DNA of 63,984 bases, filler included, from Octopus bimaculoides (taxonomy: Eukaryota): assembly GCF_001194135.2 (NCBI RefSeq). It is 7 parts of 7 records of this genome, joined end to end, with 100 filler letters (N's around TTAATTAATTAA, not from the genome) between each part and the next. Parts side by side here need not be neighbours in the genome. Positions count along the whole stretch, not along the records: positions 1 to 14,692 come from NC_068982.1; positions 14,793 to 18,465 come from NC_068997.1; positions 18,566 to 22,438 come from NC_068984.1; positions 22,539 to 53,745 come from NC_068981.1; 3 more parts are not named here. One strand, 5' to 3'. The position numbers and the translations under genes were made by a program. This document shows positions 4,441 through 33,649 of the stretch, piece by piece. Numbering within the stretch: the stretch's first letter is position 1; each line of letters starts with the position of its first letter. The notes beneath the pieces were generated by a model. It was not told the DNA's origin. It saw only the letters and a program-made list of their open reading frames with translations, and did not search any database.

Positions 4441-4526
<86 letters not shown>

Positions 4527-8925: not shown

Positions 8926-8989
8926 TTCTCTTTCTCAATCCCACTTACTCCCCTCCCCTATTTTCATCTACTCACACCTACAACCCAAT

Positions 8990-9789: not shown

Positions 9790-10850
9790 ATTATGGTTTA
9801 TTTAGCTTGGGTTGAAATTTATTATTAATAAAGTTCTTTTCCCTGATTTCTCTCTCGATTTCACTTGGACTGTGTAGTTTGTGTAATGGAAGTATAAATA
9901 TTTTCCGACCTCATGTTGCAAGATGGTTACTAAAAGGTATCTGACGGACATCTGGGTCTCTAATTTGCTGTGGATCCACACGTAAACGTTCTGATAGTCC
10001 ATTTCCAGTCTGACCCACATATTGTTCTTCACAATTCGGGCGTTTGATACAGCAAATTAAATTTCTGCTTTTGCAGTTCATATTTGCGTTTGTGAATATT
10101 TTTCCGGTTTTTGTGGCCATATATTGGCCGGTATGTATGAATTGGCATGTGCCACATCGGCTATCATTACATTTAGATACAGTGAATGATTGGTTTTTGT
10201 TGCTAAGGTCAAACTTTGCTTTGTTAAAAAATTTTTCAAGTTTTTAGGCTGGCTTTTACTATCTGCGATTATATCTTTTAACTCATTACTTTGGGCAATC
10301 ATTGCTAGGTTTACTTTGGCTATGTTGAAGATATTCTGGTGACATGGGTTGTGTCTCACTATAAATGGTATGACTTGTTCTTGTTTTCCTCTTCTTTGGG
10401 TTGTCCTCAGTTGTTGTATGGGTATTTTTATAGACAGTTGTATGCCGTTTTCTATAAGTAGAGATGGGTATTTTTGTTCGAGCAAAAATTCTCTTAGTTC
10501 TGTTTAGGCGTTTGTTCCTGATATTCGCATCTTCTACAATGATACAAATTCTTCCGGCTAGGCAATATGGGATGTTGCGTTTTGTATGTGGTGGATGGCA
10601 TGACTTAAAATTCAATGGCAGCTGTGCGAGATTGTGTGTCTGTGTTTATAGTATATATCTGTGGTAATGGTGGTGTCCTTTTTTATTACCATTATATCTA
10701 GGAATGATAATTTGATACTCCTCATCTCCTTTGTAAATAGGAGAAATGGGTGTATGTTGTTCAGGAGGATATTGAACTCTTCCAGAGTATTTAGAGATTC
10801 TCTCCAGATTATGAAGCAATCGTCAAGGTATCTCTTCCATGCCTATTCAA
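9790..10850 (-). mobile_element. Penelope-like retroelement 3' fragment: RT, C-terminal domain and GIY-YIG endonuclease (pseudogenised)
   Basis: WKRYLDDCFIIW...FLDIMV...TDIYYKHTD (RT). KSCHPPHTKRNIPY..A.RIC (thumb/CTD). NLICCIKRPNCEEQYVGQTG..L.ER (GIY-YIG), ending KFQPKLN. Confidence 0.9.
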
Positions 10851-10861
10851 TATATAGTTAT

Positions 10862-11003
10862 TTACTTTATTTACATTTGACGGATATTTGTCCTCATCTT
10901 GTTTGTTGTTAACACAACATTTCGGCTGACATACCCTCCAGCCTTCATCAGGTGCGTTGGGGAAATTTCGAATCTGGGTTCTCATTCCTAAGGTATTTTT
11001 CGA

Positions 11004-11059
<56 letters not shown>

Positions 11060-11126
11060 TCTCAGCCTGGAATTGAACTCGGAATCTTGGGGTTAGTAGC
11101 CCTCGCTCTTAACCACTACGCCATAT
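10862..11126 (-). mobile_element. tRNA-derived SINE with a hammerhead-bearing 3' region
   Basis: A-box TGGCGTAGTGG (11113-11123), B-box GAGTTCAATTCC (11069-11080), internal (AAT)n, then a CTGATGA...GAAA core. The 5' start runs into the gap. Confidence 0.85.
10911..10955 (-). ncRNA. Minimal type I hammerhead ribozyme
   Basis: GCAC-CUGAUGA-A-GGCUG-(GAGGGUAUGU)-CAGCC-GAAA-UG-U-U-GUGU. Stem I GCAC/GUGU, stem II GGCUG/CAGCC, conserved core intact, stem III minimal. Confidence 0.75.
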
Positions 11127-12029
11127 NNNNNNNNNNNNNNNNNNNNNNNNNNNNNNNNNNNNNNNNNNNNNNNNNNNNNNNNNNNNNNNNNNNNNNNNNN
11201 NNNNNNNNNNNNNNNNNNNNNNNNNNNNNNNNNNNNNNNNNNNNNNNNNNNNNNNNNNNNNNNNNNNNNNNNNNNNNNNNNNNNNNNNNNNNNNNNNNNN
11301 NNNNNNNNNNNNNNNNNNNNNNNNNNNNNNNNNNNNNNNNNNNNNNNNNNNNNNNNNNNNNNNNNNNNNNNNNNNNNNNNNNNNNNNNNNNNNNNNNNNN
11401 NNNNNNNNNNNNNNNNNNNNNNNNNNNNNNNNNNNNNNNNNNNNNNNNNNNNNNNNNNNNNNNNNNNNNNNNNNNNNNNNNNNNNNNNNNNNNNNNNNNN
11501 NNNNNNNNNNNNNNNNNNNNNNNNNNNNNNNNNNNNNNNNNNNNNNNNNNNNNNNNNNNNNNNNNNNNNNNNNNNNNNNNNNNNNNNNNNNNNNNNNNNN
11601 NNNNNNNNNNNNNNNNNNNNNNNNNNNNNNNNNNNNNNNNNNNNNNNNNNNNNNNNNNNNNNNNNNNNNNNNNNNNNNNNNNNNNNNNNNNNNNNNNNNN
11701 NNNNNNNNNNNNNNNNNNNNNNNNNNNNNNNNNNNNNNNNNNNNNNNNNNNNNNNNNNNNNNNNNNNNNNNNNNNNNNNNNNNNNNNNNNNNNNNNNNNN
11801 NNNNNNNNNNNNNNNNNNNNNNNNNNNNNNNNNNNNNNNNNNNNNNNNATATATATATTTATATATATATATATATATATGATTGTAGCTTCTCGTAGTC
11901 CGAGAAAGACGGTTCTGCAATCTCTTGTTCATGGTGATCAAATATATGTGCTATGTATTAGCATACTCTCTCCCTCAAAATCAACGTTGCCTGAATAGCT
12001 ACACGTGAGATGCCGAAGTGATTGGAGAT

Positions 12030-12145
12030 CTACATCAGATGAGGTGTTTTGCTCAAAAACACAACGCACCAAGAATTGAAACCCAGGAATTGAAACTACG
12101 TTCTCGCCATCATGATGGAACACCCTAAACGCTAGGCTATGTACA
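12030..12145 (-). mobile_element. Degenerate tRNA-derived SINE head
   Basis: Reverse strand: tagcctagcgtttagggtg...gtttcaattcc...gcgttgtgtttttgagcaa; similar to the copy at 26918. Confidence 0.55.
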
Positions 12146-12210
12146 CTCCGCTGTATTTAATATGAACATCTCACTCATTTTACATATAAAAATATAATGA
12201 CTATATGTAA

Positions 12211-12246
<36 letters not shown>

Positions 12247-12299
12247 ACATGTACAACATGCATAAAAAATATGATATAACCATCATGTTAGGATTAGTT

Positions 12300-12620
12300 G
12301 TTCACATTTGGATAATGTCACTTCCAGCATCGTGCACCATAAGAGAAACAAAGACGAATCCACTCAAAATCCACCCCAAACTTATACCTCCAACTGATGA
12401 AATCCTACTAGGTATCCATTGGGAGGATTCCGCCTCACGAGATCCTTGGACTATAGAGCCCTCCGATGGTATCACGACACATTACATCCATAACAGCTAA
12501 TACCTTCAAGGCAAGATACTCACAGCATATGCACTTCTTCAGATATAGTGGAATAGAGATCTGATTTCCTTGTTTTTCTTCATATAGAGATTCCGTAAGT
12601 ACAGTGACATTTCACCCCAG
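12300..12620 (+). mobile_element. Possible degenerate Penelope-like GIY-YIG fragment
   Basis: HYI followed by a frameshift into ITANTFKARYSQHMHFFR resembles the YIG.T..TFK.RY..H..SF pattern of PLE endonucleases. Confidence 0.35.
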
Positions 12621-12934
12621 TATCATATGGAACATATCTGATAGGGCTTCACTTTACTCAGCCGGGGCTCATAATTGCTGACTCTATATCTGAGAAAAAC
12701 TGAACGCACTTCAACAGTCTGTTGTGTTCACTAATAAAAAGACAGTTATTTCATACTGTAATACGCTCTTTTGATGTATAGAATGTCGTTGCACCCATCT
12801 CTCCGATAACCCAAATATACCACCAACGACCGGGCTTATACTATGCATGCTGCTTGCACAGAGATTATCGTTCTCCATTTTTACATTTCAATGAGCCAGC
12901 AGATACATTAGGCACGTGTACGTCAAACGTCCTC

Positions 12935-13215
12935 CGATGACTAAGTGACATTAATATTATGCCTTCTTAAATACGTGGAGGGTTTTCATTCACCATATAA
13001 TATAGTCGCTGAATTATCAGTATATCCACATGACCGTATATGATAAACGAATGTCAGCCGTTCTCTCTCTGTAAGTCACTGATGTCGCTACGTATTACAT
13101 ATAACGCATCGATGACTAAGTTACATTATTCCGCCTGCTTTAACACGTGGAGTATTTAGACCTAATATCTGCTGTCGCTGGGTTATCACTGCACCAACGT
13201 GGTACCAACTGATCA
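12935..13215. repeat. Diverged tandem repeat, 175 bp period, 2 copies
   Basis: cgatgactaagt(g/t)acatta...acgtggag...gtcgctg..ttatca...aacgaa starts at 12935 and 13110. Confidence 0.75.
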
Positions 13216-13407
13216 AACGAAGGAATTTTATTTTCTCTCTTCTTATTTTCTCTTCCGAATGTCTGAGGAGGTAAACGATCTTTTATTAATACGTCTACAA
13301 AAAAATTAAGTAATATGGCAGGTTAAGTCAATATCTCACTCAATATATACAACTCCTACGATTTGTTGGGTGCTATTTCCACTCGTCTGTGTTCACCATT
13401 TCACTAG

Positions 13408-13535
13408 TGTATGTGTGTGTGCGTGTGTGTGTGTGTATGTGAGTGTGTGTGTGTGTGTATGCCCGGAACACAAATATATACGTATATAGATATACGCAAA
13501 TATACGTATATAAAAATATGTATATAACACACACA

Positions 13536-13590
<55 letters not shown>
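13408..13590. repeat. (GT)n/(CA)n microsatellites
   Basis: Directly visible. Confidence 0.95.
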
Positions 13591-13593
<3 letters not shown>

Positions 13594-13799
13594 AAGAAAT
13601 TATTGATAGTGCCTCTGATATTTCGCGGTTGTGATTTCATAAGACTAAAAGCATTTTTACTCTTTATTCTTTTACTATATTTTGTGTGTTCTAATATGTT
13701 TGCAAGTCAGGTACGGTTTAGTAGTGTATTTTCTTTAAGTGGCATAAAAGAATCCCTTTGTAAGAAATTTGATTAGATGAGTAGAAATAAGGAATTAAA

Positions 13800-13845
<46 letters not shown>

Positions 13846-13846
13846 T

Positions 13847-14013
13847 ACGACGGGCTTCTTTCAGTTTCCGTCTACCAAATCCACTCACAAGGTTTTGGTC
13901 GGCCCGAGGCTATAGTAGAAGACACTTGCCCAAGATGCCACGCAGTGGGACTGAACCCGGAACCATGTGGTTGGTAAGCAAGCTACTTACCACACAGCCA
14001 CTCCTACGCCTAT
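13847..14013 (-). mobile_element. Bipartite tRNA-derived SINE, 5' head half
   Basis: Reverse strand: taggcgtaggagtggctgtgtggtaagtagcttgc...gggttcagtccc...gaaactgaaagaagcccgtcg; same as the copy at 63426. Confidence 0.9.
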
Positions 14014-14014
14014 G

Positions 14015-14588
14015 GTAATATAATAAATTTAAAATTTAAAATATACGAAATATAAATATAAATATATATAAAAATGTAGATAAAGATACATGTGAATATA
14101 AATGCATATAAAAATTTATGCGTAATTAAGCATGAATATTATAAAGTCTAGAATTTTAAAAAATTAAACATCTGACGATCGTTTCGCGATGTTATTGTAA
14201 TCACAATGTAATCAAATTAATTTTACAATTTATTTAAAGGACAGTATACACTTTAATAGTTTTAATTTTTTTAATATTTTTGATATTTTTTAATATTTTA
14301 ATTAATATTTCATATACCATTCGTTCTTAATACATAGATTATAAATCCATTCATCTCCGAAGAGCGGAATTATTGATAGTATGCTGATCTTTTGATTACA
14401 TTGTGATTATAATAATATCCGCGAAACGATCGTCAGATGTTTAATTTTTTTAAATTTTAGATTTTTTAAAATTACGCATAAATTTTTATATGCATTTATA
14501 TTCACATGTATCTTTATCTACATCCATATTTTTATATATATTTATATTTATATTTCGTATATTTTAAATTTTAAATTTATTATATTAC
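14015..14588. repeat. Fold-back element: ~200 bp imperfect inverted arms (14015-14216 / 14391-14588), likely an inverted Penelope-type pseudo-LTR
   Basis: gtaatataataaattt...ctgacgatcgtttcgcg...gtaatcaaa pairs with tttgattac...cgcgaaacgatcgtcag...aaatttattatattac. TATG lies on both sides. Confidence 0.9.
14352..14439 (+). ncRNA. Type I hammerhead ribozyme with U4C core variant and long stem II
   Basis: CAUCU-CCGAAGA-GCGGA...UCCGC-GAAA-C-GAUC-G-UC-AGAUG. All three stems pair, stem III is palindromic (ACGAUCGU) and the triplet is GUC. Confidence 0.75.
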
Positions 14589-14792
14589 TATGTCATATTG
14601 GATATATATTTTTCGAAATAATAAATATTGATTTCCTGCGAATATTATTGATAATTTTATGAATTTATTAATAATATAAAAACACACACACANNNNNNNN
14701 NNNNNNNNNNNNNNNNNNNNNNNNNNNNNNNNNNNNTTAATTAATTAANNNNNNNNNNNNNNNNNNNNNNNNNNNNNNNNNNNNNNNNNNNN

Positions 14793-14899
14793 AGACCGAT
14801 AGAATAAGTACTAGGCTTACAAAGAATAAGTCCCGGAGTCGATTTGCTCGACTAAAGGCAGTGCTCCAGCATGGTCACAGTCAAATGACTGAAACAAGT
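14793..14899 (+). mobile_element. Bipartite SINE, 3' half (5' part in gap)
   Basis: agaccgatagaataagtactaggcttac...ccagcatgg..cagtcaaatgactgaaacaagt; reverse complement of 57055-57165. Confidence 0.85.
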
Positions 14900-14967
14900 T
14901 TATATGCATATATTTAAAGATTTTTGTGTGTGTGTATGTATACACACACATATGTATGCATATATAG

Positions 14968-14998
<31 letters not shown>

Positions 14999-15133
14999 CA
15001 CACATACATTGCAAGGTAACTTATGGATGTCAATGTATGAATATATGTCCATCTGTTCTCCGTGTATGGACGTGAATGTGTTCATACATTTGCATACGTG
15101 TATATGTGCATCTACGTGTGTGCATATGTGAGT

Positions 15134-15171
<38 letters not shown>

Positions 15172-15380
15172 GTGGGTGTGAGTGTATGTGCGTGAGTGCA
15201 CGTTAGGGTTTATGTGAAATTGCACGAATCTTACTTTCATTTGAGGTCTATAATCTCAGTGTGAACATCTGAAAAGGAGATAGAGAGAGGGAGAGAGAGA
15301 GACAGAGAGACAGAGAGAGAGAGAGAGAAAGAGAAAGAGAGAAAGCAGGAAGAGGAAAAGTGAGAAACAGACAGACAGGC

Positions 15381-15419
<39 letters not shown>

Positions 15420-15809
15420 GTATATAAGGGTGGTGGAGATGTAGCTTTCTACTTGAACCAATAGACAACTGCCAAAATGACGCGGTTGACACTTCTGTCA
15501 GAAGCTGAAAGGGATCCATACCCAACCAATTGAAACGCCGTGGGGAGCGAACCGGTAAAGAAACTTTCAGAACAAAGCGAGATTCACATGTAACAATTGA
15601 GTCAAGTGCCTCAATTGTGTAATTCAATCCTGAGTAGTTTCTAGTGGTTTCTATATGTATGGGCCATGAGTAGAGTAATCCACGTGGGCGACGGTGGGGC
15701 GGTAGTTACATGTGGTAGTGGAAAATAAAAGATGGTGTTTAAAAGGACAGAATCGTGATGTAGAAAATAAGGTCTTACCCTTGATGTTGTGGAGAGTAAT
15801 TGGCATGGT

Positions 15810-15900
15810 GGAGTGGTTAACATGCCCGTTTCTTTTTTGCAATCACATAGGTTCAGGTTCGCGTTCAGGCTCAGTCTCACTGCGGGGCACTTTGAGCAGA
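15810..15900 (+). mobile_element. Degenerate SINE head
   Basis: gtggagtggttaa...caatcacat...ggctcagtctcactgcggggcactttgagcag resembles the bipartite SINE head. Confidence 0.5.
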
Positions 15901-16022
15901 TAAGCTATTTTTTTACTTGGGGGAAAAAAGTGGGAAAGAAATAAGGGATAGCGCCATAAATGGCAAACCAGGAAGAAAGAACTCTATAACAAAAGAAAGA
16001 AGAATAAAAATGGATATATATA

Positions 16023-16305
16023 TTCTTTTATTCTCTTATTTGTTTTAATCATTTGACTGCGGCCATGCTATAGCACTGCCTTTAGTCGAACAAATCGACC
16101 CCGGGACTTATTCCTTGTAAGCTTAGTACGTATTCTATCGATCTTTTTTGCCGAACCGCTTATTACGGGGACGTAAACACAACATCAATTGGCAAGTGAT
16201 GGTGGAGGGACAAATACAGACACACAAACATCCCCTCCACACACACACACATATGTATAAAACAGGCTTCTTTCGGTTTCCGTCTACCACATCCACTCAC
16301 AAGGC
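16023..16305 (-). mobile_element. Bipartite SINE, 5'-truncated (tail, internal CA repeat and end of head half)
   Basis: catttgactgcggccatg...gccgaaccgct...acacac...ggcttctttcggtttccgtctac; collinear with 57035-57400. Confidence 0.85.
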
Positions 16306-16352
16306 TGCGTTCATTTTATGAACGAATGTATGTGTGTAGATCTGTTGTTACA

Positions 16353-16357
<5 letters not shown>

Positions 16358-16390
<33 letters not shown>

Positions 16391-16417
16391 CATGTTTGCT
16401 TGTGCGTATGTTTATTG

Positions 16418-16456
<39 letters not shown>

Positions 16457-16500
16457 CATGTGTGCTTGTGCGTATGTTTATTGGTATATGTGTGTGTGTG
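16358..16500. repeat. ~65 bp tandem duplication built on (GT)n
   Basis: ttcatg(t)gcttgtgcgtatgtttattggtata occurs twice between GT tracts. Confidence 0.85.
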
Positions 16501-16880
16501 TTAGTGTTTACACCCTTGCTATTTTTTGATGTTGTCACATAAACAATTCCCTAAACTCACAATTATTCCATTTTCAATTGAATCGTGACACCACTGAAAT
16601 TTTCCGTTTCAATACAGCCGATCAATCCGTGACCAAAGGATCAACAAATTAATTATACAGAACGAAATTAGTAGAGTTACTGGAGTATGACCTTTTGTAA
16701 ATTACTGGTAGACTTTTGATAAACCACTTTATCAAATATGCGACTAGGTTTCGATTCCACTTCTGAGAGTACATACATTTTATGGCGTCTTTTGATTATA
16801 TCTTCTGAAATCAATATCCCCGTACAACTCCATAGATGAATTAACGTACCAAATAATAATAATTATTATTATTATTATTA

Positions 16881-17095
16881 TCCTTTCTACTATAGGCACA
16901 AGGCCTGAAACTTTTGTGGGAAGGGGACTAGTCGATTACATCGACCCCAGTGTTTCGCTGGTACTTACTTCATCGATCTCGAAAGGATTAACGACAAATT
17001 CGATCTCGGCGGAATTTCAACTCAGAACGTAAAGTCGGACGATATGCCGCTAAGCATCTTGCTCGGCGCGCTAATGATTTTGGTAGCTCACTGCC

Positions 17096-17098
<3 letters not shown>
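16881..17098 (-). mobile_element. tRNA-derived SINE, family A
   Basis: ggcggaatttcaactcagaacgt B-box region; body matches 32903-33117 reversed; (TAT)n/(AAT)n on both sides. Confidence 0.9.
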
Positions 17099-17157
<59 letters not shown>

Positions 17158-18430
17158 TTTTTTTTTTTTCTTTATCACCTGCAGCTTACGGTACCATGCT
17201 AGTCGTTATTTTCGGTTATCCAATACTTCCCTGAGTATTTTGGCTGTGCAAGAATTATTATTATCATTATTATTATTATTNNNNNNNNNNNNNNNNNNNN
17301 NNNNNNNNNNNNNNNNNNNNNNNNNNNNNNNNNNNNNNNNNNNNNNNNNNNNNNNNNNNNNNNNNNNNNNNNNNNNNNNNNNNNNNNNNNNNNNNNNNNN
17401 NNNNNNNNNNNNNNNNNNNNNNNNNNNNNNNNNNNNNNNNNNNNNNNNNNNNNNNNNNNNNNNNNNNNNNNNNNNNNNNNNNNNNNNNNNNNNNNNNNNN
17501 NNNNNNNNNNNNNNNNNNNNNNNNNNNNNNNNNNNNNNNNNNNNNNNNNNNNNNNNNNNNNNNNNNNNNNNNNNNNNNNNNNNNNNNNNNNNNNNNNNNN
17601 NNNNNNNNNNNNNNNNNNNNNNNNNNNNNNNNNNNNNNNNNNNNNNNNNNNNNNNNNNNNNNNNNNNNNNNNNNNNNNNNNNNNNNNNNNNNNNNNNNNN
17701 NNNNNNNNNNNNNNNNNNNNNNNNNNNNNNNNNNNNNNNNNNNNNNNNNNNNNNNNNNNNNNTTTTTTTTTTTTTTTTGAAAGAAGTTCCTCCGAACGAA
17801 ATATGGTTTCACTAGACATTTCGAAGAATGAACTTCAAATAGACTTCAAATATTGGTACACGGCCACAGGAACCAAGTAATATTGTAAATCACACAATTG
17901 CACCTATGTAGTATGAAGTATTTCCAACTGAAGTTTCATCAAGATTGGTCCATGTAAAACAGAAAGATTGAGCGAGAATGTTTAGTCTCTGGTTTATCGA
18001 GTGGGACACAGACAGGCTTACAAGAAGATATGTGAAACGTGGAAGCATACAGCTTTTGTGCTCAACTCTAAGTTTTTATAACAAGAGATTAGAATAGAAA
18101 CCTTGAAATGCCAGAGTTTTCTGCGGAAGATCAAAGCAATTGGATTATCTAAATCCCAACCAGTACTGATTGTGTAAAGATTTCTAAAGCATTTCGAAAT
18201 TTCTCCATTTGTGTCTACTGTAATGAGAAAACGCATACATAAATACATGCATACATTCATCCATACACGCATACAGACATACATATAGAAATAAATACCA
18301 ATATATTTACACACACATACGCACATACATATATATATATACACACCCACACAGACACACACGTACATACATGCAAATGATTACATTATACTTATACACA
18401 TAAACAAATAGTTATACAATTATACATACG

Positions 18431-18465
<35 letters not shown>

Positions 18466-18889
18466 NNNNNNNNNNNNNNNNNNNNNNNNNNNNNNNNNNN
18501 NNNNNNNNNTTAATTAATTAANNNNNNNNNNNNNNNNNNNNNNNNNNNNNNNNNNNNNNNNNNNNTATACATCATTAGATGTATACCTGACTTTCCTATA
18601 TAAAATTAGAAATTAACGGAACGCTGAACTCCAGACTATCAACTTAAACAACATTTATTCAGGTGGTAAATATGTACATCTTTAGCTCTTGTTTGTTGTT
18701 ACAGCTTCTGTGTGTGTGAGCATGGTTGTTGGGACGTTGGTATGTATATGTGAGCGAGCTGTCTAGCGTAAGTTCGAAAGATGGAGAGAGACAGCTAAAC
18801 ACGTCCATGCTCAATCGCTGGCCAGCAAGAAAGAGGCAGAATGAAGCGGGAAAACTTGGTTGTTGAATTCCACGCATGCGCACGGCGTT

Positions 18890-20260
18890 ACTACAACATC
18901 CTTGACCACCCACTGCACAAGATTGTCTAGTCTCAAGAAGGCTCTCTGCATGATTTGCTTGTCTGTCAACAGAAGTGTCACATCATCCATGAAGGCCTTC
19001 ATAGGTAATTATACATGGGCAATTTGTTCTGAAAAGTGCACTGCTTTCAAAATTATCTCCATGATTAGGAGAAACCACGTGACAGATATTGTGTAGCCAG
19101 CAGCAATGCCAATCTGTTGTAAAATTTCTGGCTGTAAACCTCATCTTGAAACTGTCATAATATACCCTCATTAATCTTGCTACTTTCTCTGGAATGTGGA
19201 AGTGGTCCATGGCTCTCGTCAGTAATTTATGTGACACTGAGCCATATGCATTAGCTAGATCAAGCCATACCATGTTCAGATTTATCATGTTCTGTTTGGC
19301 ATCCTGGATCAATTTCCAAATAGAAAAACAATGCTCAATGCATCCAGGGATTCCTGTCTTTTGAACAGATTCATCAACATATTCATTACTCTGTTCTCCT
19401 TGAGAGAATTCCCATAAAGATCTTGCCTTCCACTTTCAATAAGGATATCGGCCTAACTTGTTTTATAGTCTTGCATTGGCCTCCTTCAGCAGGTATACGC
19501 CTTCTGCCTTACACTAATCTTCTACTAAAGTTTCTTCATACCACAGCTGCTGGAGCAGGACAAAGAGCTTGTTTCATAGACAATTGCAATATTTATATAC
19601 TTTATACGAAATGCCATCACCTCCTGAGGCACTCTTTACTCTAGCTTTTCTCACAAAATCATTTACCTCTTTCTCCCTGATGTCCCCAGTTTGAAATTCG
19701 ATATCAGGTTCTAAGAGATGCTTTAGCCCATTTATAGGTGGCAGTTGTTGGTTACAGTTTGGATCACTGTAGGTTTCTTTGATATGAGCATTCAATTTTA
19801 TTTTCGTGCACGATAAAGTGCCACTCTTCGGTTCAGTGAACAGCTTCTTAACAACCCCATACAGGTTCTTCAGAAACTGTTCATGAGTCCTTTTGCATTC
19901 TTTTCTTTGCTCATATTGGCAGATATGCCATTGCACATAATGGCATTTCTTTTTTAAACTTTCGTACAGCTGCGTGAGGCCAAGTTTTTCGTCTTCCTCT
20001 GCACTTGATCCACATATCCCTTTCACTAATCGGGTCCCATATTTCACTCCAAATAATTCCTTTCCTGTAGGAAAGAAATTATTTGGAGTGAAATTGAAAC
20101 TTTCCCAGTTTCTCCACTGTAGATCCTGTCATTTTATAAAGAACTTGACATACCTTGTTCTCAAACTCTTTATATCTTCCTTTCTCATTAGCAGCAGGCC
20201 ACAAAACCTTCAGTTCCCTTTGAATGCTATCTGATGTACCAGTCTCACAACCTGCAGTTT
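18890..20260 (-). mobile_element. R2/NeSL-type (RLE-class) non-LTR retrotransposon RT fragment, pseudogenised
   Basis: RKARVKSASGGDGISYKVYK, KTGIPGCIEHC, WLDLANAYGSVSH and KAFMDDVTLL motifs across frameshifts. Confidence 0.85.
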
Positions 20261-20373
20261 CCTGTCAGGAAGATGTCTTTGCTGTAGTATTTATCGATTC
20301 ACTAAATCAAATGTCTTTGTCAAGTCATACTAAATTGTTTGCTTCTTCATTTCGTTTTTAATCTATTTATATA

Positions 20374-21237
20374 CAGGGTGTGATGGGTAAATTGTCACCA
20401 TTTTATATTATTAATTTCACACATGCATATTGTTTGTATTTGATTTTGTTGACTACTCAATATAGTAGGGTCAGTCTATGAGAAAAACAGCACCATGACA
20501 CAATTCTGCCATAAATTTGGAAACGACGGGTTGTACTGCTTGCCATTCATGCAGGAAGCTCCAATACGAAGAGATGATGAACACACAGAACAACTGTTGG
20601 CTTGCCGTATCACCAAAACACGTACTGAGAGTGATAAAAATTAAACATCCAGTCAACATCATGGTGTTTGGAATGATCACTAGTGATGGTGATGTTATGC
20701 CTCCATTCATCTTTCCATACGGTCTCAGACTCAATGTGGAGGCCTACATTAAGTGCCTAGAGGAGGTAGTGCTACCTTGGGTCAAGAGGGTGGCTGCTGG
20801 AAGATCCTATGTCTGACAACAGGACTATGCACTATGCCACACAAGCAGGAAAACCTAGTCAAGGCTGTCAAACAATTTCTGCAACCACACCACCCCTAAC
20901 ATCTAGCCACCTAACTCCTTAGACTGCAACCCCCTTGATTATTTTGTATAGGGTGCAGTTGAGTGAGAGACCAACAAAACTCCTTGTAACACCAAAGATG
21001 AACCTAAGGCAAGGATTATGGCAGCATTCACCAACTTAAACAAGGAGACCATCCAGAAGAGTTGCAGGAGATTCCAAAGTCATTTGGAGGCCGTGGTTGA
21101 AGCCAATGGCGATTTTATTGAATAAATTTATTCTTTAGTATTTCAAGATATCTTTATGTAATTTTGCTAAATATATGCTAAAATGAGATGTCAGTGTCAT
21201 TTTCAGTTTTGCATAATTTAGACAACAATATATTCAC

Positions 21238-21242
<5 letters not shown>
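20374..21242 (+). mobile_element. Internally deleted Tc1/mariner element, DD37D (maT-like) transposase C-terminus
   Basis: TA|CAGGGTG start. IMVFGMITSDG...QQD-x37-D(Y) with the *PPNSLDCNPLDY motif (spacing counted by hand across in-frame stops). Degenerate 3' TIR ends cacctgtg|TA. Confidence 0.88.
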
Positions 21243-21285
<43 letters not shown>

Positions 21286-21306
21286 TCCTGGTGAAGGCTG
21301 GTTTAT

Positions 21307-21367
21307 GGGATTACCCTGGGTTTCCTGTCCATAAAGGGTTTAATTTTATGGTGTATCATCAGACCCC
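21307..21367 (-). ncRNA. Type I hammerhead ribozyme candidate with an internal loop in stem II
   Basis: GGGGU-CUGAUGA-UACA-CCAUAAA-(9 nt)-UUUAUGG-ACAG-GAAA-CCC-A-GGG-U-A-AUCCC. Stems I and III pair, triplet GUA. Confidence 0.65.
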
Positions 21368-21693
21368 AAGACCTGTTGGCCTAAGACTTCTTTAGAATAT
21401 GGAGGGGAGAAGTCTCGGTAGAAAGGCAGTTATAAACAAGAGGTGTTATGTCCCTTTGCTAACGACTATCGACTTCCAGCCGTAGTGCCATCATTTAGCT
21501 ATGAGGGTAAACAATAAGGGATTATGTCCCTCTCCTCTTAGCTATAAGCTTACAGCTGTGCCACCATTTTGCGGTTCCCAAAATGCCAGCAGAAATTTCC
21601 TAAAATGCAAACATGGCCTGAAAATCTCTGTTCTGGAGTTAAATATAGCCCATGATTCGAATGAGTCTTTTACGATTCTCGTGCATTCGGCTA

Positions 21694-21783
21694 TGCATAG
21701 CTTGCTGCGTTTCATCCCGTTGATGTAGGGGCCTGGATTTTCGAGCCCCTACATCAACGGGACGAAATGTTGCAAGCTATGCA
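21694..21783. repeat. Long hairpin: 39-bp arms, 12-nt loop
   Basis: tgcatagcttgc....tttc.tcccgttgatgtaggggc / gcccctacatcaacggga.gaaa....gcaagctatgca. Confidence 0.9.
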
Positions 21784-21797
21784 CATAGCTTGCAACA

Positions 21798-21843
<46 letters not shown>

Positions 21844-22127
21844 TAAAGTTCTGTATGAATTATGTTGTTTTTTACTGTATGCTAAATTACAGCTCAAATC
21901 CTAGGAAATTACCTTTTCCTATTCTCTCATTCCTGTTTGTGAAACAAGCAGACAGCCAGCTAGTAACTTGTACCAGTCAAGCAGCCAACATATAACCACA
22001 TATTCAGCATGAACAACTCAACACAGTAGAAGTCGTGGAATCTAAACAGACACAACTGAATGACCAATGCACACACAGACACAAAACATGCCTGGTTCTA
22101 CCTCATCAAATTGACACAGTATTTCCC

Positions 22128-22438
22128 CTAAGAGAAATACCTAGCCAAGGATAAACCTCTGTACCTGGCTTTCGTTGACATGGAGAAAGCCTTTGACAGG
22201 GTCCCCCGATCCCTTATCTGGTGGTCAATGAGGAAACTTGGGATAGAAGAATGGCTAGTGAGAGCTGTGCGAGCCATGTACAGAGATGCGGCCAGTAAGG
22301 TGAGGGTTGGAAATGAGTACAGCAATGAATTCCGGGTAGAGGTAGGGGTCCACCAAGGTTCCGTCCTCAGCCCCCTATTATTTACCATAGTCCTCCAGGC
22401 AATCACAGAGGAGTTCAAGACAGGTTGCCCCTGGGAGC
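22128..22438 (+). mobile_element. RTE-clade LINE reverse transcriptase fragment
   Basis: EKYLAKDKPLYLAFVDMEKAFDRVPR...GVHQGSVLSPLLF; open up to the gap. Confidence 0.92.
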
Positions 22439-22538
22439 NNNNNNNNNNNNNNNNNNNNNNNNNNNNNNNNNNNNNNNNNNNNTTAATTAATTAANNNNNN
22501 NNNNNNNNNNNNNNNNNNNNNNNNNNNNNNNNNNNNNN

Positions 22539-22761
22539 TTCCCTTGCTTCTGGAGTAGGTATTTTTGCAGTCCTATGGTGGTTATTTTATAATAGTTTTC
22601 TAGCTGTATAAGACCCCTGCCACCTTCTGTGCGTTGTATATATAGCCTTTCTATGTCAGATTTTGGGTGGTGCATCCTATATCCTGTCATTATTTTTCTT
22701 GTTTTCCTGTCTATTTTACATAGTTCGTTTAGTGTCCAGTTAAGGATGTTGTAGCTGTAGC

Positions 22762-22765
<4 letters not shown>
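22539..22765 (-). mobile_element. R4/Dong-like retrotransposon RT C-terminal fragment
   Basis: LNELCKIDRKTRKIMTGYRMHHPKSDIERLYIQRTEGGRGL; the upstream end abuts (TAT)n. Confidence 0.85.
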
Positions 22766-22826
<61 letters not shown>

Positions 22827-22838
22827 CACACATATATA

Positions 22839-23415
22839 TTGGGTCATCCTATAAATAAAGCAGTTTTTCAAAGGCATGGATTAAAAGTCGGAGGGGGGCG
22901 GGATAAACTACCTGCATCAACTTGCTATAAAAGCAGGTAGTAGTTTTATCTTGTGCTTATTCTTAGTGCCAGTTTTGAAGAGTGTACAATTCAATTTTGA
23001 CAGTTATTTTTCAAAGATATAATGGAAGTCACAAAGAAACATATTCGGCTTGTATCGCTTTATGAGTTCAATAAAAGCAACAACGCAACCGGGATAAATA
23101 TTAATGCAGTATATGGAGATTGGACAATTAGCGTAGGCCATTGTCAACGGTGGTTCCAGAACTCCCGAGCCAGAAACTACAGCCTAGAAGATGAGCCTCG
23201 TCTAGGAAGATATTTAGAACTCAACGAGGACATCATGCAAACCCTCGCGGAGCAAACCCCCTTCGTTACTGTTGAGAAACCTGCGGAGAAGTTTGGATTT
23301 AGGTATTCAATTATTCATCGATACATGAGGGCCATCGGAAACGTCAGCAAATTAGGTCAATGGGTTCCTTACAAAGTTTTGGATTCTAATCGCGCGCAGA
23401 GAGCCAGCGCTAGTG
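22839..23415 (+). mobile_element. Mariner transposon 5' fragment (TIR + N-terminal HTH region)
   Basis: ORF 23022-23426 with QRWFQ...SLEDEPR.GR and the GQWVPYKV (WVPHEL-like) motif; starts after TA with ttgggtcatcc. Confidence 0.88.
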
Positions 23416-23967
23416 GTTATCTGTAGCATGAAATCATCTACTAGCATGAAATCATCTACTATGCACCCACTAAACCCCTTCGACATACATACACTCACTA
23501 TACAGACTAGTATATATGTCTACTTTAATACATCCACTTATTGTGTTTGCTCAACACGAAAGTATATTATTCCTATTCAACTCGCATTCATTCTCCATTC
23601 AAAACTATAAATTGCACTATTCCTTGCCATTCTCATTTGAAACTGCTGACGGACCTTACTTATAGCTTTATTTGATCATAGAATTGCGTAGCGCATACTT
23701 ATTTTTCTATGATCATTACTCCATTTTTGACAATCTGGAATATACTAATACACACGGTTAGAAATATTTCTTCATTTTACATCTCTCTAGCCACTCCGTC
23801 TCTGAATACGGTATACTCAGATTATTGAATACTCATTCTGCATCATGATCTAATTGCTAAGCTAGTCAGGAAACAGCTCTAAGATACACTATTTGCTTGT
23901 ATTATTCTCAATCTAAATAAAATGATTTTTATCGAGTGATGAGAAATATTTTGCTATAACATTTTAA

Positions 23968-24239
23968 GAGTGGCTGTGTGGTAACAAGCTTGGGTATCAG
24001 TACGACTGCGTGGCACCTTTAGCTAATGCCTTCAACTATAATCTCGGGCCTACCAAACCCTTATGAATGGATTTGGTTGACGGAAACTGAAAGAAGCCTG
24101 TTATATATANNNNNNNNNNNNNNNNNNNNNNNNNNNNNNNNNNNNNNNNNNNNNNNNNNNNNNNNNNNNNNNNNNNNNNNNNNNNNNNNNNNNNNNNNNN
24201 NNNNNNNNNNNNNNNNNNNNNNNNNNNNNNNNNNNNNNN

Positions 24240-24272
<33 letters not shown>

Positions 24273-24335
24273 TAGTTTGTATTTGTGTGTCTGTGTTTGT
24301 TGGCCCACCGACAATAGAATAAGTACTAGGCTTAC
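23968..24335 (+). mobile_element. Bipartite SINE, degenerate, spanning a gap
   Basis: Head gagtggctgtgtggta...gacggaaactgaaagaagcc, (TA)n gap, then ctgtgtttgt...atagaataagtactaggcttac. Confidence 0.8.
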
Positions 24336-25096
24336 ATACGTCACTCTCCCATTTGCAAACGTTGTCACACTACTGAGTCTACTGCAGTTGATTGTGTAGA
24401 ATTTTAAAAGACTGAAAATTCAGAGGAATTTTACTGAGTATATGAAATTGTTTCTTTGAGTTTCTAAAACTGAGGTGAATCTTTATGCGACAAATGGTTT
24501 TAGCCAAAACGTCAATTTCTTTTTCTCTGAGGAAAATAATTTATTCTCTCTGAAATGAGTTTCTACTTAATATAAACTAATGCAGTTCGTTGCTAGCTTC
24601 TTTCGAATATGCTCGTCTAAATGGAAACAGTCTAATTTTTAGAAATTTGAAATATAAATTATCTTTTTCAAGTACTTTACTTCTATTTCTCTGTTTCTGC
24701 GACATAATGCATAAACATTTCCTTGATTGCCGCCTGAAAAATTCTGAAAAAGTTCAATTCTTTAGTGTTGTTTAAAGTTTGATGAATTTACTAGAATGAC
24801 TTTCAGAAAAGAAATACGCCACATAAAATGAGCATGGGTAAATATTCTGGGATTTTCTTAAATATCTCTATAATATTCGAAAGTGAGACCAATATATATG
24901 CTATGCCAGGGATACGGTTACGTATGCAACAGTCTTTCTAATTAAAAATTTAATGTCAAAATAAATTGAATGTATATTTATGTAGCGAAATGAATAAAAT
25001 AATTTATCTAAAATATTTTAATGAAATTTTTCCGGCTATACGTACATAGGTTCATGCTAACATATACCACACTCATAAATCTGACAGATTTTGTGC

Positions 25097-25147
<51 letters not shown>

Positions 25148-26917
25148 AGTTGAAAATTATCCCTTCTTAAATTGCTGTCTTTGATCCCAACTCTCAGTAC
25201 TTTCTGCTACAGAATTTAAGTCATTGCAGAAAGTCCATTAAGAGAGTAATTTATAAGTAGCGAGTGAAATGTATATCTAGGAAATAAACTGGAGATAGTA
25301 GATAGTGCACGGCCCAAGATACCCTAAACGTTAGACTTTGAAATAAATCCAGTCCAATAACAATCATCATAGACATTCAATATTAAATTCCTCACAAAAA
25401 AATGTTTTGCTTGAGTCTTTGACCAGATGAGAAACGAGATAAATAAAGCGTAATATAATAACGTTTGTATAAAACCAGTCCCGATAAGACAGGTCATGAC
25501 CTGCTTACGATTAATGTTCTCGTTGTATAGTTGGAATTTAGAACATTTCGAAGAATTTTTTCCACTTAATGTTTCATTTTAAGAATAAATGAATAATGAT
25601 TTTTCTGGTTAAATTAGAACAGATGTAGCTGATTCTAAGATTGATAAAAATAAATAAAAATATTTTAAGAATTTAAAAGGTCAATGTTGAAAGATTTGAA
25701 AGCGGTGACTTGGAATCATTCATCAATAGAGAAATGAAAGCATTTATTAGTGGTTGGCAGAATACTGTTGACAACTGACTGGAAGAGAGTTTAAATGATG
25801 AGAGAGGTCAGTGAATTTTACTGGCATAGGGGAGGGAACACTAAAATGTATGCCGTTAGTTATAACGACAGCAGTAAAAGAGTTCATGCGTTTTAGCTGG
25901 ATTTTCAAAATATTTAATTATTCACTTTATTATCCAATATAAGGGAAGATCTCAACAGATACCCTTCAGGCCACTTGAGAATTAAGAGAGAATCTGCGAT
26001 TATAAAGTTAAAACTCACCGTCTTGATTGCTAGTGTTATTTTGTTCAGGATTCTCGCAACTGGAATTTTGTTGTGATACTAGTGATCCGGTCTCTCAAAT
26101 TTTCAGTAACTCCCGATGACGACATTCGATATTAACAGTCATGACACACATATACATGCAGGTTTCATTCATTGTAGAAGGTATATACATATTTGATATT
26201 TCTCTTCTATTTCCCAAATAGGATTCGAATAAATATTCCAAAATATTTTACCAAAGAGCGAAAACTGTATCAGCATTATATTATTGATCTGTGAAACATT
26301 TGTTATCTAATTTTCAATAATCTGTTCTAAGTTAGAATTATGTGCTGAAATCGATGTGGAGTAACTAGTGATAATGTTTACTTCTACAATTGGTTGTATT
26401 GTGAGAAAGAACAAACAGTCCGGAAGGATGACAAAGATACCATCACATAGAAAAGAAAACAACGCTAGAATAAATAGCATTGGTTATCATTAATTTACAT
26501 CGAAAATCAGAAAGAGTTAGAACAGAATATTTCGAATCTCTTCATAAATCAACTGAAGAAATTCTTTCCACAACAGCATTATTGCAGCTGTAGAAAGAAC
26601 CAAAGCAACACTGACATTTTTCTTTAAAGAATGACAGACACAGTAAAAAAAAAAAGCTAAAATATATGCACACCGTATCTGCATGCATAGGAAGTCACTA
26701 TAGTTTCGTTCGGCCACCTAGAAATAGTAGCCAAATTATTTTCAAACTTATCTTGTACTGAACATTTGGAATGGAGTTGGAGTGATAGAGGGCTTACAGG
26801 CAGTGAGTTAAGTTAATTTTATTATCATGTAGTAGACTGAAAACTTTTCGTGAAAGACGCATCACGCTGCCTAGTCAAGAAATCGAACACCCGTCTTTAC
26901 AACCCAACAACAAGGCT

Positions 26918-27030
26918 AAGTTCCTGGTGATAGCTCTGTTGTCAAGTTGTTTAGATATTAAGGAGTTGTGCTCACGACTATAAGGTCGTTGGTTAGATTC
27001 GTGGACCGGTTGGCATGTTTTGTCCTTCAG
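26918..27030 (+). mobile_element. Degenerate tRNA-derived SINE head
   Basis: ctcacgactataaggtcgttggttagattcgtggaccgg...gtccttcagcaa, with a B-box-like ggttagattc. Confidence 0.5.
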
Positions 27031-27284
27031 CAATAATTTGATGTTGTTGAAGTCTAATCAACTAAAAGTAAAGCATTCACTTGCCACAACGCGCTATTCG
27101 GCCGGACAAGGCTAGAAAATCTGAAAATCGAAGAAGGTTTTTATTCTTGCCGGTGAATAAATCGGAACTTAAAACAGTAAGCAAAAGCATGATACGAGCT
27201 ACCAGGTCATACTCGTTGGCAAGCGATGCTTTGTTTAACCTATGTATGTGCATACTGAAATGCTATACACATATATGCATACAG

Positions 27285-27620
27285 TAGAGGCGCAATGACC
27301 CAGCGGTTAGGGCAGCGGACTTGCGGTCATAGGATCGCGGTTTCGATTCTCAAACCGAGTGTTGTGAATGTTTATTCAGCGAAAATACCTAAAGCACCAC
27401 GAGGTTCCGGTAGGGGGTGGTGGTGATCCCTGCTGTATTCTTTCTCCCTCTCTTTCTTCCTGTTTCTGTTGTCACACGCTGTGTCACGCTGAATCTCCCC
27501 GAGAACTACGTTAAGGGTACGCGTGTCTGTGGAGTGCTCAAACATTTGCTCGTTAATTTCACAAGCAGGTTGTTCCGGTGATGGGTTCAACTGGAACCCT
27601 CTTCGTCGAAACCGACTGAA
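27285..27620 (+). mobile_element. tRNA-derived SINE (third family)
   Basis: gaggcgcaatgacccagcggttagggcagcggact...ggtttcgattctc (A and B boxes), followed by a ~260 bp non-tRNA body. Confidence 0.75.
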
Positions 27621-29803
27621 TGCTACGATACGCATACATATATACATATATACACATGCACTCACACTCTCACACAAACATGTGTGTGTGTGTGTGTGTA
27701 ATTAGAGGAAAGCATATATATATTTGTAGTGAAACTATACAATATTACCCCTCTGAAAATAGGTGCTGAACTTAAGCCATTTGACTCTCAGCAGATTGGA
27801 GTGAAGAATCGGGTAATTTTATCATTCACTAGTTTAGTTTTGATTCACAAGTTTACCAGCAGTGTTTTAATGATTTTTTCCATATTGCAAGCGAAGTGTT
27901 TCACCCGCAACTTTTACTTTTTAAATGACAGAGGTTTCACTCCCTTACGGATTGTGGTGTGTAAGACAGTCGAAAAAATTACAAATGTGTCGTTAAAAAT
28001 CAGTGGTTAGTTCGTTTTGTCATCACTCGGAACCGCTGAGAGATCCGATGATTACCAAACCGATTATTTACAGAGTGATCCTCAAACATATGTTTATTTG
28101 AACGATTGGGCATCTCCAATCAAATTTGAGGGTATATTAATTGTTTAGTTAATACACCTGCGTTTACTATACGTCACGTTCAAACTGATTTTGAAAAAGC
28201 TAAGGTCATTGGTTGATGCATGAAATCGGTATATCTTGACTCTCTAACACATATCGTTATTTCTCTTCCTCCCAAGACGACTTAAAGAAAAAAATAAACG
28301 ATGATTTTGAGTAATTGTTAGACAGATAGATAAAAGGTTCTTGAAAGTTATTGTCTGTAATGATAAGCTGAATATTATCATTTATATTACCAACTTAATA
28401 TGTAAACTAGGCCAGCTTTAGCGGAATGGCTGAATCAGGAGCAGAACTGCCTCAGTAGAATTGCATTCCTTTGTTATTCTGAAGAGGGCTGCTGTTATCA
28501 ATCAGTAGATTGATGGGTGTAACAATAGCTCAGTGCATGTTTGGGACAATATGTGGAAAACCTTTTATGCTGTGTTTAATTTTCTTAATGATCAAATCTT
28601 TTTTCTACAACCTTTTGATGTTTTTCGTACAAATTATCATGCTACTCTCAAGACGACATTTCTCTCATCTACGTCATTCAATTCTGTATGTTGTTCATGT
28701 TAGCATTCGAGTTTATTAATTTTCATATTATTTTCTGATTTTTTTCAAGATACAAATATTTTCCCATTGGGAGCTTCTGTCTTTGAACTCGAGTTTTGTT
28801 GAGATTTCTTTTGAACATGTGCTGGTGATTATAACCTCAAACAACTGCCGATTCCCTTTGAAGCCAAATGATAAGTGTATAAAAGATCAAACACCGAACT
28901 ATTGATCATATATTAATTACCCGTTCACTATTTGCAGGCGTTTATTCTCAAACTGGTGAGCTGTGGTGAATATGGTAGGTTAGCTTTTGGAATATTGTGC
29001 GCAAAGTTTACAATTGGAGAGAAGGGTTTATTCAAATGAGATGGTAGGGACAGCGCAAGATTTGTAAGTTATATTAGGGATATCGTGGGTGCAATTGCGA
29101 TTACAAGGGAAAATATCATACATAAATTAAACTGCAACGCTACTCTCACTGTTTTTTTCTAGGGTTCGAATGTAACTATTTTGTTTCAGAAAATGTGTTC
29201 GTATACATTTAAGTATGAAGTATTTGCATAGTCCATCTATTCTCAGAAACTCTATACAAACGCAGGAGGAGGCATTTAGCGAGTAATTATACTTAAGCCT
29301 TTAACTTTAATTCATACAGTAACTGTTGGCAAATATCTCAAAAATATATCATTTGTATTCAACGAATCACGTTTAAAATTGTGGTATACACCATTCCATT
29401 GGCCAGTACGATTTAGACGAACGATGATAACATTCTTAGCTTTCACCTCATCGTCCCAGTAGAAGCTCTTTTAAAAACAAGGTCAGTTAAAAATAAAGGG
29501 GAAGGTGAGGATTTATGTGTTCAGTGATCCAGCATTTTATGAAAGGAATTGAGGGAATGGAGCGTTTACAAACAGTATTTTAGATTGTTTGTTTGTCTTT
29601 GTCATTGCTTGGACCTTGAACTACGCATCCTGTTGTTAAGTGACAGTATTAGGGATAGCATGTGTGCTGTTTTAGTATTCGATACATCTGCATTCTCAGA
29701 GTCGTGAGATGGCTGCTCTTACACTGTTGCATTTGGAAGCTTAGGACAGATTTAACGGTATATATGTATGTTTCTGCTGAATAGAAGTAAAAACAAAATT
29801 GTA

Positions 29804-29880
<77 letters not shown>

Positions 29881-29986
29881 GTGTGTGTTTATGTGAATGT
29901 TTGCGTGTGTCTGTGTTTGTGTTAAGGTTTGTTTATTTTTTAATAGAAACAGTTTTATATTACATTAAGGGAGTACACAATATGTT

Positions 29987-30128
29987 TGATAGAGTATAAA
30001 TCCCTTAAACAAGAATAGTATTGAGAGTGACCTCGAAGTTTCGGTTAGCTAAGCCATTATCTGAGTGTTCAGTTGGCCGAAACTTCGAAATCACTATTAA
30101 CGCTATTTAAGTTTAAGAATTATATACG
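29987..30128. repeat. Imperfect inverted repeat (~55 bp arms) made of hammerhead-like 3' halves
   Basis: tcgaagtttcgg (30033-30044) / ccgaaacttcga (30077-30088), with looser pairing further out. Confidence 0.7.
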
Positions 30129-30566: not shown

Positions 30567-30870
30567 AATTTACTTTTCTGATCAATATTAATAAGTTGAG
30601 TAAGTTGGTGAAGTAGTAGATACAATTATCATGGAGTCATATGGTATTTCGTTCATTTATCTGTGAGGTCGTCTTTGCCATTCGTGATACGTGGTTGATT
30701 GTTTAAAGTACAAGACATTATTCCTACGAGAAAGTATTATAAATATATATCACGAATGGCAAAGACGACCTCACAGATAAATGAACGAAATACCATATGA
30801 CTCCATGATAATTGTATCTACTACTTCACCAACTTACTCAACTTATTAATATTGATCAGAAAAGTAAATT
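30567..30870. repeat. Perfect 123-bp inverted repeat with a 58-bp spacer
   Basis: 30567-30689 is the exact reverse complement of 30748-30870 (checked base by base). Confidence 0.97.
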
Positions 30871-32815: not shown

Positions 32816-32881
<66 letters not shown>

Positions 32882-32902
32882 TATTATTATTATTATTATT
32901 AC

Positions 32903-33117: not shown

Positions 33118-33129
33118 TACTATTATTAT

Positions 33130-33620: not shown

Positions 33621-33649
33621 CATTTCGCACACTTTACAATGTAGCACTT

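Follow-up and report, generated by a model that had tools for sequence, protein, structure and literature searches.

The window analysed here is a 63,984-nucleotide (nt) stretch of Octopus bimaculoides DNA (RefSeq assembly GCF_001194135.2), made of seven parts of seven records joined end to end. It hosts a scatter of hammerhead ribozyme-like motifs together with remnants of Penelope-like elements (PLEs). The DNA is AT-rich (GC 35%), rich in microsatellites and interrupted by many gaps. A sequence-only reading had reported three type I hammerhead folds (at 10911, 14352 and 21307) and a degenerate inverted pair at 30.0 kb, and had proposed that several non-coding, hammerhead-carrying families ride on the reverse transcriptase (RT) and GIY-YIG nuclease of PLEs.

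All three folds are present, at 10912..10955 on the minus strand (site 1), 14352..14439 on the plus strand (site 2) and 21307..21367 on the minus strand (site 3), but none is intact: every copy is damaged. The 30.0-kb pair is also real as a pair (51 nt, self-blastn E 3e-7; site 4, 29994..30127), although its catalytic 5′ half is missing. A further type I hammerhead lies at 7615..7670 on the plus strand, outside the range first read, with a perfect core and a G10.1-C11.1 pair. Protein remnants at sites 1 and 3 bear out the suspected Penelope link. These two sites adjoin coding remnants of two different PLEs, and probably all of the motifs are 3′ ends with hammerheads (pseudo-long terminal repeats, pLTRs) from several PLE families, left by truncated copies that have since decayed.

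Detection of the hammerhead-like motifs

A descriptor search for type I hammerheads, which the sequence-only reading had suggested, was run on the window. With a perfect core it gave two matches, site 1 and the previously missed fold at 7615-7670, and none in any of 25 block-wise dinucleotide shuffles. With one core mismatch allowed, sites 1 and 2 were recovered, where shuffles averaged 0.12 matches. None of the four settings detected site 3 or site 4. With covariance models, the whole window gave 134 Rfam matches at E<=5, none of them a hammerhead, and targeted searches returned nothing at sites 1 and 3 and, at site 2, Hammerhead_1 with 15.2 bits (E 0.38), below the gathering threshold of 34. 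The folding energies of the four full motifs fall within the shuffled range (z -1.5 to +0.25).

The core boxes are perfect at sites 1, 3 and 7615, carry U4C at site 2, and lack the 5′ box at site 4. At sites 1, 2 and 7615 helix II pairs right up to the core (G10.1-C11.1 type), which it does not do in the site 3 copy. Stem III had been described as palindromic or nearly so in two of the three folds, whereas it is so in all three; at 7615 it is one change away from a Hydra-type palindrome. The predicted stem III self-duplex is worth -10.0 kcal/mol at site 2 and -11.6 at site 3, and is unstable at sites 1 and 7615.

The stems had been said to differ in sequence, and this agrees with our comparison. 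Six segments were compared in 15 pairs, each against 100 shuffles; 13 pairs scored under the shuffled best, sites 1 and 3 equalled it, and none exceeded it. Since no pair rises above its shuffled maximum, the sites are, by this sequence comparison, different families, unrelated to one another. Self-comparison of the window found no direct second copy of any site and no tandem arrays.

Some other candidates were discarded. A CUGAUGA at 39.2 kb has no stems and was rejected as a hammerhead. Pattern scans with three motifs gave no matches in viral contigs, and a pattern scan of prokaryote genomes gave none either. Ten metagenome matches to the site 2 motif (GC 53-66%) are taken as chance, with the hammerhead 5′ box upstream in none of the ten. 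Scans for related loci found no PLE relative.

A Hydra-clade element at site 3

Site 3 lies within a 5′-truncated Hydra-clade PLE at 21288..21745 on the minus strand. This copy consists of the end of an open reading frame (ORF), a 3′ untranslated region (UTR) of about 180 nt, the hammerhead and a tail of about 20 nt, adjoining (TA)20. The hammerhead is therefore near the 3′ end of an element inserted into (TA)n. Its fold has a stem I of 5 base pairs (bp), CUGAUGA, GAAA, ACCCAGGGU and A17, with a 4-bp palindrome around one base and a cleavage site after A, a hammerhead of Hydra type. The base of helix II has decayed, with four bases unpaired on each side.

The ORF end, 67 codons at 21545..21745 on the minus strand, is the C-terminus of a Hydra-type GIY-YIG nuclease, with CxxC and CxH around the conserved E and N. 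One Cys of the CxxC is changed in this copy, and the majority letter at 21706 restores that first Cys codon. Among 1.84 billion representatives the 67-codon peptide had ten matches at E<=0.001; three are unrelated repeats and were excluded, and the other seven are this nuclease C-terminus. Four nuclease homologues (<=45% identity) each recover 21745-21570 in return, with E values of 1e-9 to 1e-11, and the Hydra-defining CxCX5C linker is present in two of the seven. Compared by hand with the supplement text, the peptide is identical to Hydra-1_Obim at 29 of 56 positions. A word-indexed search with the same peptide gave three candidates, none of them relevant.

At the 5′ junction there is a short inverted copy of the ORF end (21745..21789, plus strand), and the resulting hairpin at 21690-21789, centred in coding sequence, is a 5′ inversion of that sequence. 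A reading of this 21.7-kb hairpin as two inverted hammerhead halves was rejected, as the sequence is the ORF end, and so was a Poseidon-like reading of another frame there.

Contigs from three organisms and one RNA run, four of the 24 runs listed, were mapped to 21285-21795. Summed contig depth peaks on the hammerhead, at 58,000, 36,000 and 118,000 in the three organisms, while contigs of the locus itself in X1 have a depth of about 40; such sums do not measure copy number, but the family is plainly abundant in all three. Depth is about 65-1,060 in 21411-21554 and then 3,000-9,000 in 21570-21745. Divergent contigs span 21288-21511, 21327-21618 and 21451-21736, and because these bridge the blocks, the site 3 hammerhead and the ORF end belong to one family. 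Joints at 21555-21605 and 21381-21415 fuse the ORF end to the hammerhead block, skipping 150-240 nt, in at least two organisms. There is no head-to-tail joint among the 15 joints listed (of 93), with one tabulated row of unstated kind.

At site 3 four majority letters, unphased, fall within the fold; they lengthen helix II from 7 to 10 bp and improve it from -4.8 to -10.0 kcal/mol, and two of them reverse CpG decay. None of the 40 variants listed (of 198) lies in the core, GAAA or stem III; position 7, which is free to vary, does so in a consensus of loose ends.

The sequence-only reading had looked ahead to cleavage-aligned read ends or circular RNAs. In RNA from the site 3 family, represented by one complementary DNA (cDNA) run of which about 6% was read, there are 199 reads in both orientations, 173 of them under 90% alike. 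They show no end pile-up and no joint, in a type of library that may lose small circles.

Site 3 is apparently an undescribed, high-copy Hydra-clade family. Elsewhere in the window, 12484-12759 on the plus strand is a second, older Hydra-type nuclease remnant (profile E 2e-5), with no hammerhead found behind it. Just behind it is a decayed tandem pair of units of about 165 nt (12914-13071 and 13090-13241; score 97 against a shuffled maximum of 50). Each unit opens with a CGATGA stretch, and no hammerhead fold was found in them.

The site 1 hammerhead, its ORF and a pol III-type head

Site 1 is a minimal type I hammerhead with a stem I of 4 bp, CUGAUGA, one extra base, a helix II of 6 bp with G10.1-C11.1, and GAAA. 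It has no loop III and carries U in place of the expected C15.2; the GUU-type cleavage triplet reads UGU-U. The fold lies in a pLTR-like unit at 10862..11004 on the minus strand, with 49 nt upstream of it and a tail of about 50 nt; these boundaries are read from the sequence.

The unit joins a 5′-truncated, frameshifted PLE ORF (9797..10863, minus strand), which opens directly behind the tail on the same strand. This one broken ORF holds the RT motif YLDD, the thumb and a Cx4CxxC linker, followed by a GIY-YIG nuclease of Neptune/Nematis type. One of its fragments matched an RT plus GIY-YIG protein, P0001 (one of 15 candidates). A profile from the best 120 of 877 RT plus GIY-YIG relatives gave E values of 3e-48 and 8e-39 at 9797-10863, the only significant region in the window. 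Pfam gave nothing relevant on six window fragments of the ORF, and a PDB search with the PLE protein gave no matches. The ORF stop and the pLTR start both lie within TAA repeats. Such an order, pLTR first and truncated body second, is that of a PLE partial tandem.

Upstream of the unit, an (AAT)17 tract (11005..11055, minus strand) separates it from a tRNA-type RNA polymerase III (pol III) head at 11056..11126, also on the minus strand. The head has an A box and a B box at 11070-11123, and an assembly gap cuts its upstream side. This pair of boxes at tRNA spacing is the sole match in the window, with none in 100 shuffles, and lies 96 nt upstream of the hammerhead on the same strand. Neither ARAGORN nor Rfam calls a tRNA at the head.

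Sites 2, 4 and 7615

Site 2 has a stem I of 5 bp, the core CCGAAGA (U4C), a long helix II, the palindromic ACGAUCGU (an 8-nt stem III) and C17. Its 59-nt helix II domain has a z of -2.8, with two of 200 shuffles equally stable. According to PMC3088659, a U4C change considerably reduces activity in vitro, yet is compatible with infectivity in viroids. An inverted partial copy of 14391-14590 lies at 14015..14216 on the minus strand (88.5% over 209 columns); its start falls within helix II, in the apical tetraloop (14390-14393). A 13-nt match to site 2 at 13.6 kb scores below shuffles and was rejected.

Site 4 consists of two hammerhead-like 3′ halves, head-to-head and facing outward, that flank a hairpin resembling helix II (30043-30078); (TA)-rich microsatellites lie on both sides of the pair. 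Each half reads GAAA, a near-palindrome and C. No CUGANGA leads into a helix; the best candidates have two mismatches on the plus strand and one mismatch, without a stem, on the minus strand. Upstream of the 7615 fold, a GIY-YIG-like stretch at 6962-7270 is unsupported by profiles and was rejected.

Origin of the motifs

Published PLE work suggests how such debris would be made. The GIY-YIG nuclease of a PLE would nick AT-rich or (TA)n DNA, and RT would begin not far behind the hammerhead, mostly ending prematurely, so that copies of the hammerhead end would greatly outnumber those of the ORF. A shorter, inverted, head-to-head copy may often be added by self-priming or template switching. In an intact parent, a palindromic stem III could allow dimeric cleavage between two hammerheads on one tandem transcript, though weakly and possibly only in the presence of the element's protein. 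PMC11167929 describes nicking of AT-rich DNA, reverse transcription that begins close behind the hammerhead, and protein-assisted cleavage, which was not needed for insertion in vitro; weak dimer cleavage of minimal PLE hammerheads is described in PMC4209133. The copies in the window are single and mutated and would therefore be inactive or nearly so. Sites 2, 4 and 7615 would have arisen in the same way as other PLE ends.

This account differs from the families first proposed. The co-location with PLE ORFs that had been suggested as a check is seen at sites 1 and 3 and not at sites 2, 4 and 7615. Several non-coding families on PLE machinery are not borne out by a site 3 that is continuous with a PLE coding end, both in the window and in other copies, or by a site 1 that abuts a PLE ORF. 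At the other three sites ordinary 5′ truncation explains the motifs equally well, and tandem organization was not found. Judged by coding content, site 3 is coding, site 1 is doubtful, and no ORF was detected at sites 2, 4 and 7615.

A number of observations weigh against a common origin from PLE ends. No PLE protein remnant was detected beside sites 2, 4 and 7615 in searches with a Neptune-like profile, a Hydra nuclease profile and Pfam. Site 4 may not have originated as a hammerhead. Site 1 is linked to its ORF by adjacency alone, with the pol III head upstream, and within the window no hammerhead copy follows the ORF stop. At site 3 even the majority fold lacks G10.1-C11.1: two bases on the 5′ side and a single one on the 3′ side are left, with U.G as their best possible pair; file S2 of PMC8557442 has Hydra folds with T.T at the closing position of helix II. 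Finally, the middle of the site 3 element is at least 10-fold shallower than the ORF-end block, and ten of the 15 joints listed skip it, which means that internally deleted, non-coding derivatives exist.

Could sites 2, 4 and 7615 instead be monomers of non-LTR retrozyme families, that is, of non-coding tandem units that form circular RNA and use PLE proteins? The missing ORFs and the perfect core at 7615 would suit such units, and dispersed retrozyme monomers have been described (bioRxiv 2026.07.22.740005). However, no site has a direct second copy in the window, the head-to-head inversions at sites 2 and 4 are the layout of PLEs, and the sole family examined with contigs, that of site 3, proved to be coding. 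We consider this origin unlikely. Slightly less likely still is an origin of some motifs, site 4 and perhaps also 7615, by chance folding or as ordinary inverted repeats of AT-rich DNA. Rfam lends no support to the motifs, their whole-motif energies equal those of shuffles, and site 4 has no core. Furthermore, GAAAC misleads easily: the 21.7-kb hairpin looked like a hammerhead half and is coding sequence. Against chance stand the perfect-core descriptor, with its two matches and none in the 25 shuffles, and the arms of site 4, where a single change separates each arm from a 10-nt palindrome with C behind it, as in the stems III of file S2.

A separate alternative concerns site 1, which might be a composite short interspersed element (SINE) of about 265 nt. 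Such a unit would start with a pol III head of tRNA origin, continue with an (AAT)n linker and end in a hammerhead tail of PLE type; it would be mobilized in trans by PLE RT and endonuclease, and be joined here to a truncated PLE body. Alternatively, the head could be the internal promoter of the pLTR of this PLE. The A and B boxes lie on the strand of the hammerhead and are matched nowhere else in the window or in 100 shuffles, no TTTT terminator can be read between head and tail, and the ORF has no pLTR behind its stop. The same order of head, linker and hammerhead probably occurs in octopus sequence. The tRNA-related, pol III-transcribed Sm-alpha of schistosomes offers a precedent. Nevertheless, there is a single copy only, pattern scans of viral contigs and prokaryote genomes found no second, the upstream flank is an assembly gap, and tRNA models give no match. 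It may also be that a PLE end landed in the microsatellite tail of a SINE unrelated to it, in keeping with the targeting of AT-rich repeats by PLEs. It is therefore a tentative suggestion, with the odds against it, that site 1 is a pol III-driven, tRNA-headed unit ending in the minimal hammerhead tail of a Neptune-type PLE, whether as a SINE with an identifiable Penelope partner or as a PLE pLTR that captured a pol III promoter. Apart from schistosome Sm-alpha, a limited literature search showed no unit that combines a pol III head with a hammerhead.

Relation to known elements

Minimal hammerheads at PLE termini, an Octopus Hydra element with a hammerhead, and retrozymes as PLE derivatives are all already in print. 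The background on which the sequence-only reading relied, that PLEs carry minimal type I hammerheads and often inverted copies of them, agrees with PMC4209133 and PMC8557442. Solo and opposite-strand minimal hammerheads from truncated PLEs have been described (Cervera and de la Pena 2014, PMC4209133). Site 1 shares with these the extra base after A9, G10.1-C11.1, a longer helix II, a 4-bp helix I, palindromic 15.2/16.2 and the absent loop III. In both, too, truncated elements leave hammerheads singly or on opposite strands, and one genome carries many unrelated families. In contrast, the copies in the window carry inactivating or weakening changes, and site 1 adds a pol III-type head, which is unmentioned in the accessible part of that report.

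A hammerhead-bearing Hydra PLE, Hydra-1_Obim, has been described from Octopus bimaculoides itself (Craig et al. 2021, PMC8557442, files S1 and S2). Site 3 shares with Hydra-clade PLEs the CxxC/E/N/CxH nuclease end, a short UTR, a hammerhead with a 4-bp palindromic stem III, a short tail, a (TA)n target and a 5′ inversion. Its layout of stop, some 180-200 nt, hammerhead, short tail and (TA)n equals that of Hydra-1_Amil and file S2, and the palindrome of 4 bp around one base also agrees with file S2. It is nonetheless a different family from Hydra-1_Obim, as the hammerhead and UTR differ and helix II is longer and bulged; the RT and linker lie beyond this truncated copy. The remnant at 9797-10863 shares the RT thumb, Cx4CxxC linker and C-terminal GIY-YIG with Neptune/Nematis-type PLEs, for which this linker is typical (PMC8557442). 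Unlike them it is 5′-truncated at the RT motif YLDD, frameshifted and without a 3′ pLTR, and its clade is assigned by motifs and not by a tree.

Retrozymes are defined as tandem, non-coding units that produce circular RNA (PMC7229834), and their RNA is abundant, linear and circular, and 170-400 nt long. Their origin from PLEs has been argued (bioRxiv 10.64898/2026.07.22.740005), with cephalopods unsampled in the available part of that preprint. The general idea of a retrozyme-PLE system is therefore already in print in these two sources. The families in the window share with non-LTR retrozymes type I hammerheads, the association with PLEs and units of a few hundred bases. They differ from retrozymes in having no tandem arrays, folds that are minimal or variant instead of canonical, coding remnants at two sites and, for the site 3 family, no abundant RNA seen. 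In the SINE-like Sm-alpha elements of schistosomes a hammerhead comes after a promoter of pol III type, which would also hold for site 1 if head and fold form one unit; Sm-alpha, often tandem, has a canonical hammerhead, whereas the linkage at site 1 is seen in one copy.

According to the supplement of PMC13282606, the genome of Octopus vulgaris is 6.8% PLEs, which belong to 190 families; text searches of that source did not find the words ribozyme or hammerhead in the parts covered. In the giant squid 235 Hammerhead_1 loci have been counted. Given the abundance of PLEs in Octopus vulgaris and of these squid loci, a 20-kb stretch with several unrelated folds would be nothing unusual. As read here, the hammerheads of the window are ordinary repeat debris, which illustrates how the truncation of PLEs spreads hammerheads of unrelated families across the genome of an invertebrate. 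The pol III head of site 1 is the one lead worth genome-wide attention. If its link to the hammerhead is true, it would provide a SINE with a named PLE partner, and with it a testable route of trans-mobilization.

Inversions and helix II

A smaller possibility is that the head-to-head inversions of PLE copies start from helix II of the ribozyme, in which case the fold would have a function in copying that is distinct from cleavage. The inverted arm of site 2 starts in the apical loop of helix II, and site 4 is centred on a helix-II-like hairpin. Among the five inverted joints listed for the site 3 family, two break in the helix II loop, one in its 5′ arm and two elsewhere. The inversion at 21.7 kb is a counter-example. 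From these few cases we infer that inversion junctions may favour helix II.

Inverted, 5′-truncated PLE copies and palindromes at their junctions have been attributed to self-priming (PMC8557442; PMC3846280), and opposite-strand PLE hammerhead pairs 100-700 bp apart have been described (PMC4209133). Our literature search found no paper on inversions that start at helix II. If they do start there, it would matter for the role of the hammerhead in PLEs, as cleavage was dispensable for insertion in vitro (PMC11167929).

Further repeats

The window also contains other repeats. A perfect 123-nt inverted repeat with a 58-nt spacer (30567-30870) is either a recent fold-back or an assembly artefact. 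Eight gaps, including that at 14737-14748, hold a 12-nt word containing TTAATTAA between paired N runs; this is assembly filler and inflates the output of repeat finders. Interspersed short repeats, likely SINE copies, occur at 13823-14021, 57320-57485 and 63417-63615, one of them adjoining the left arm of site 2, and copies of what is likely another SINE family occur at 17007-17157 and 32844-32994. By eye, 18650-20250 (minus strand), 22128-22438 (plus strand), 33100-35700, 36200-38800 and 54000-55700 resemble fragments of retrotransposons of the long interspersed element (LINE) type, and 20360-21240, 22840-23430 and 61760-62410 resemble Tc1/mariner or pogo transposase remnants.

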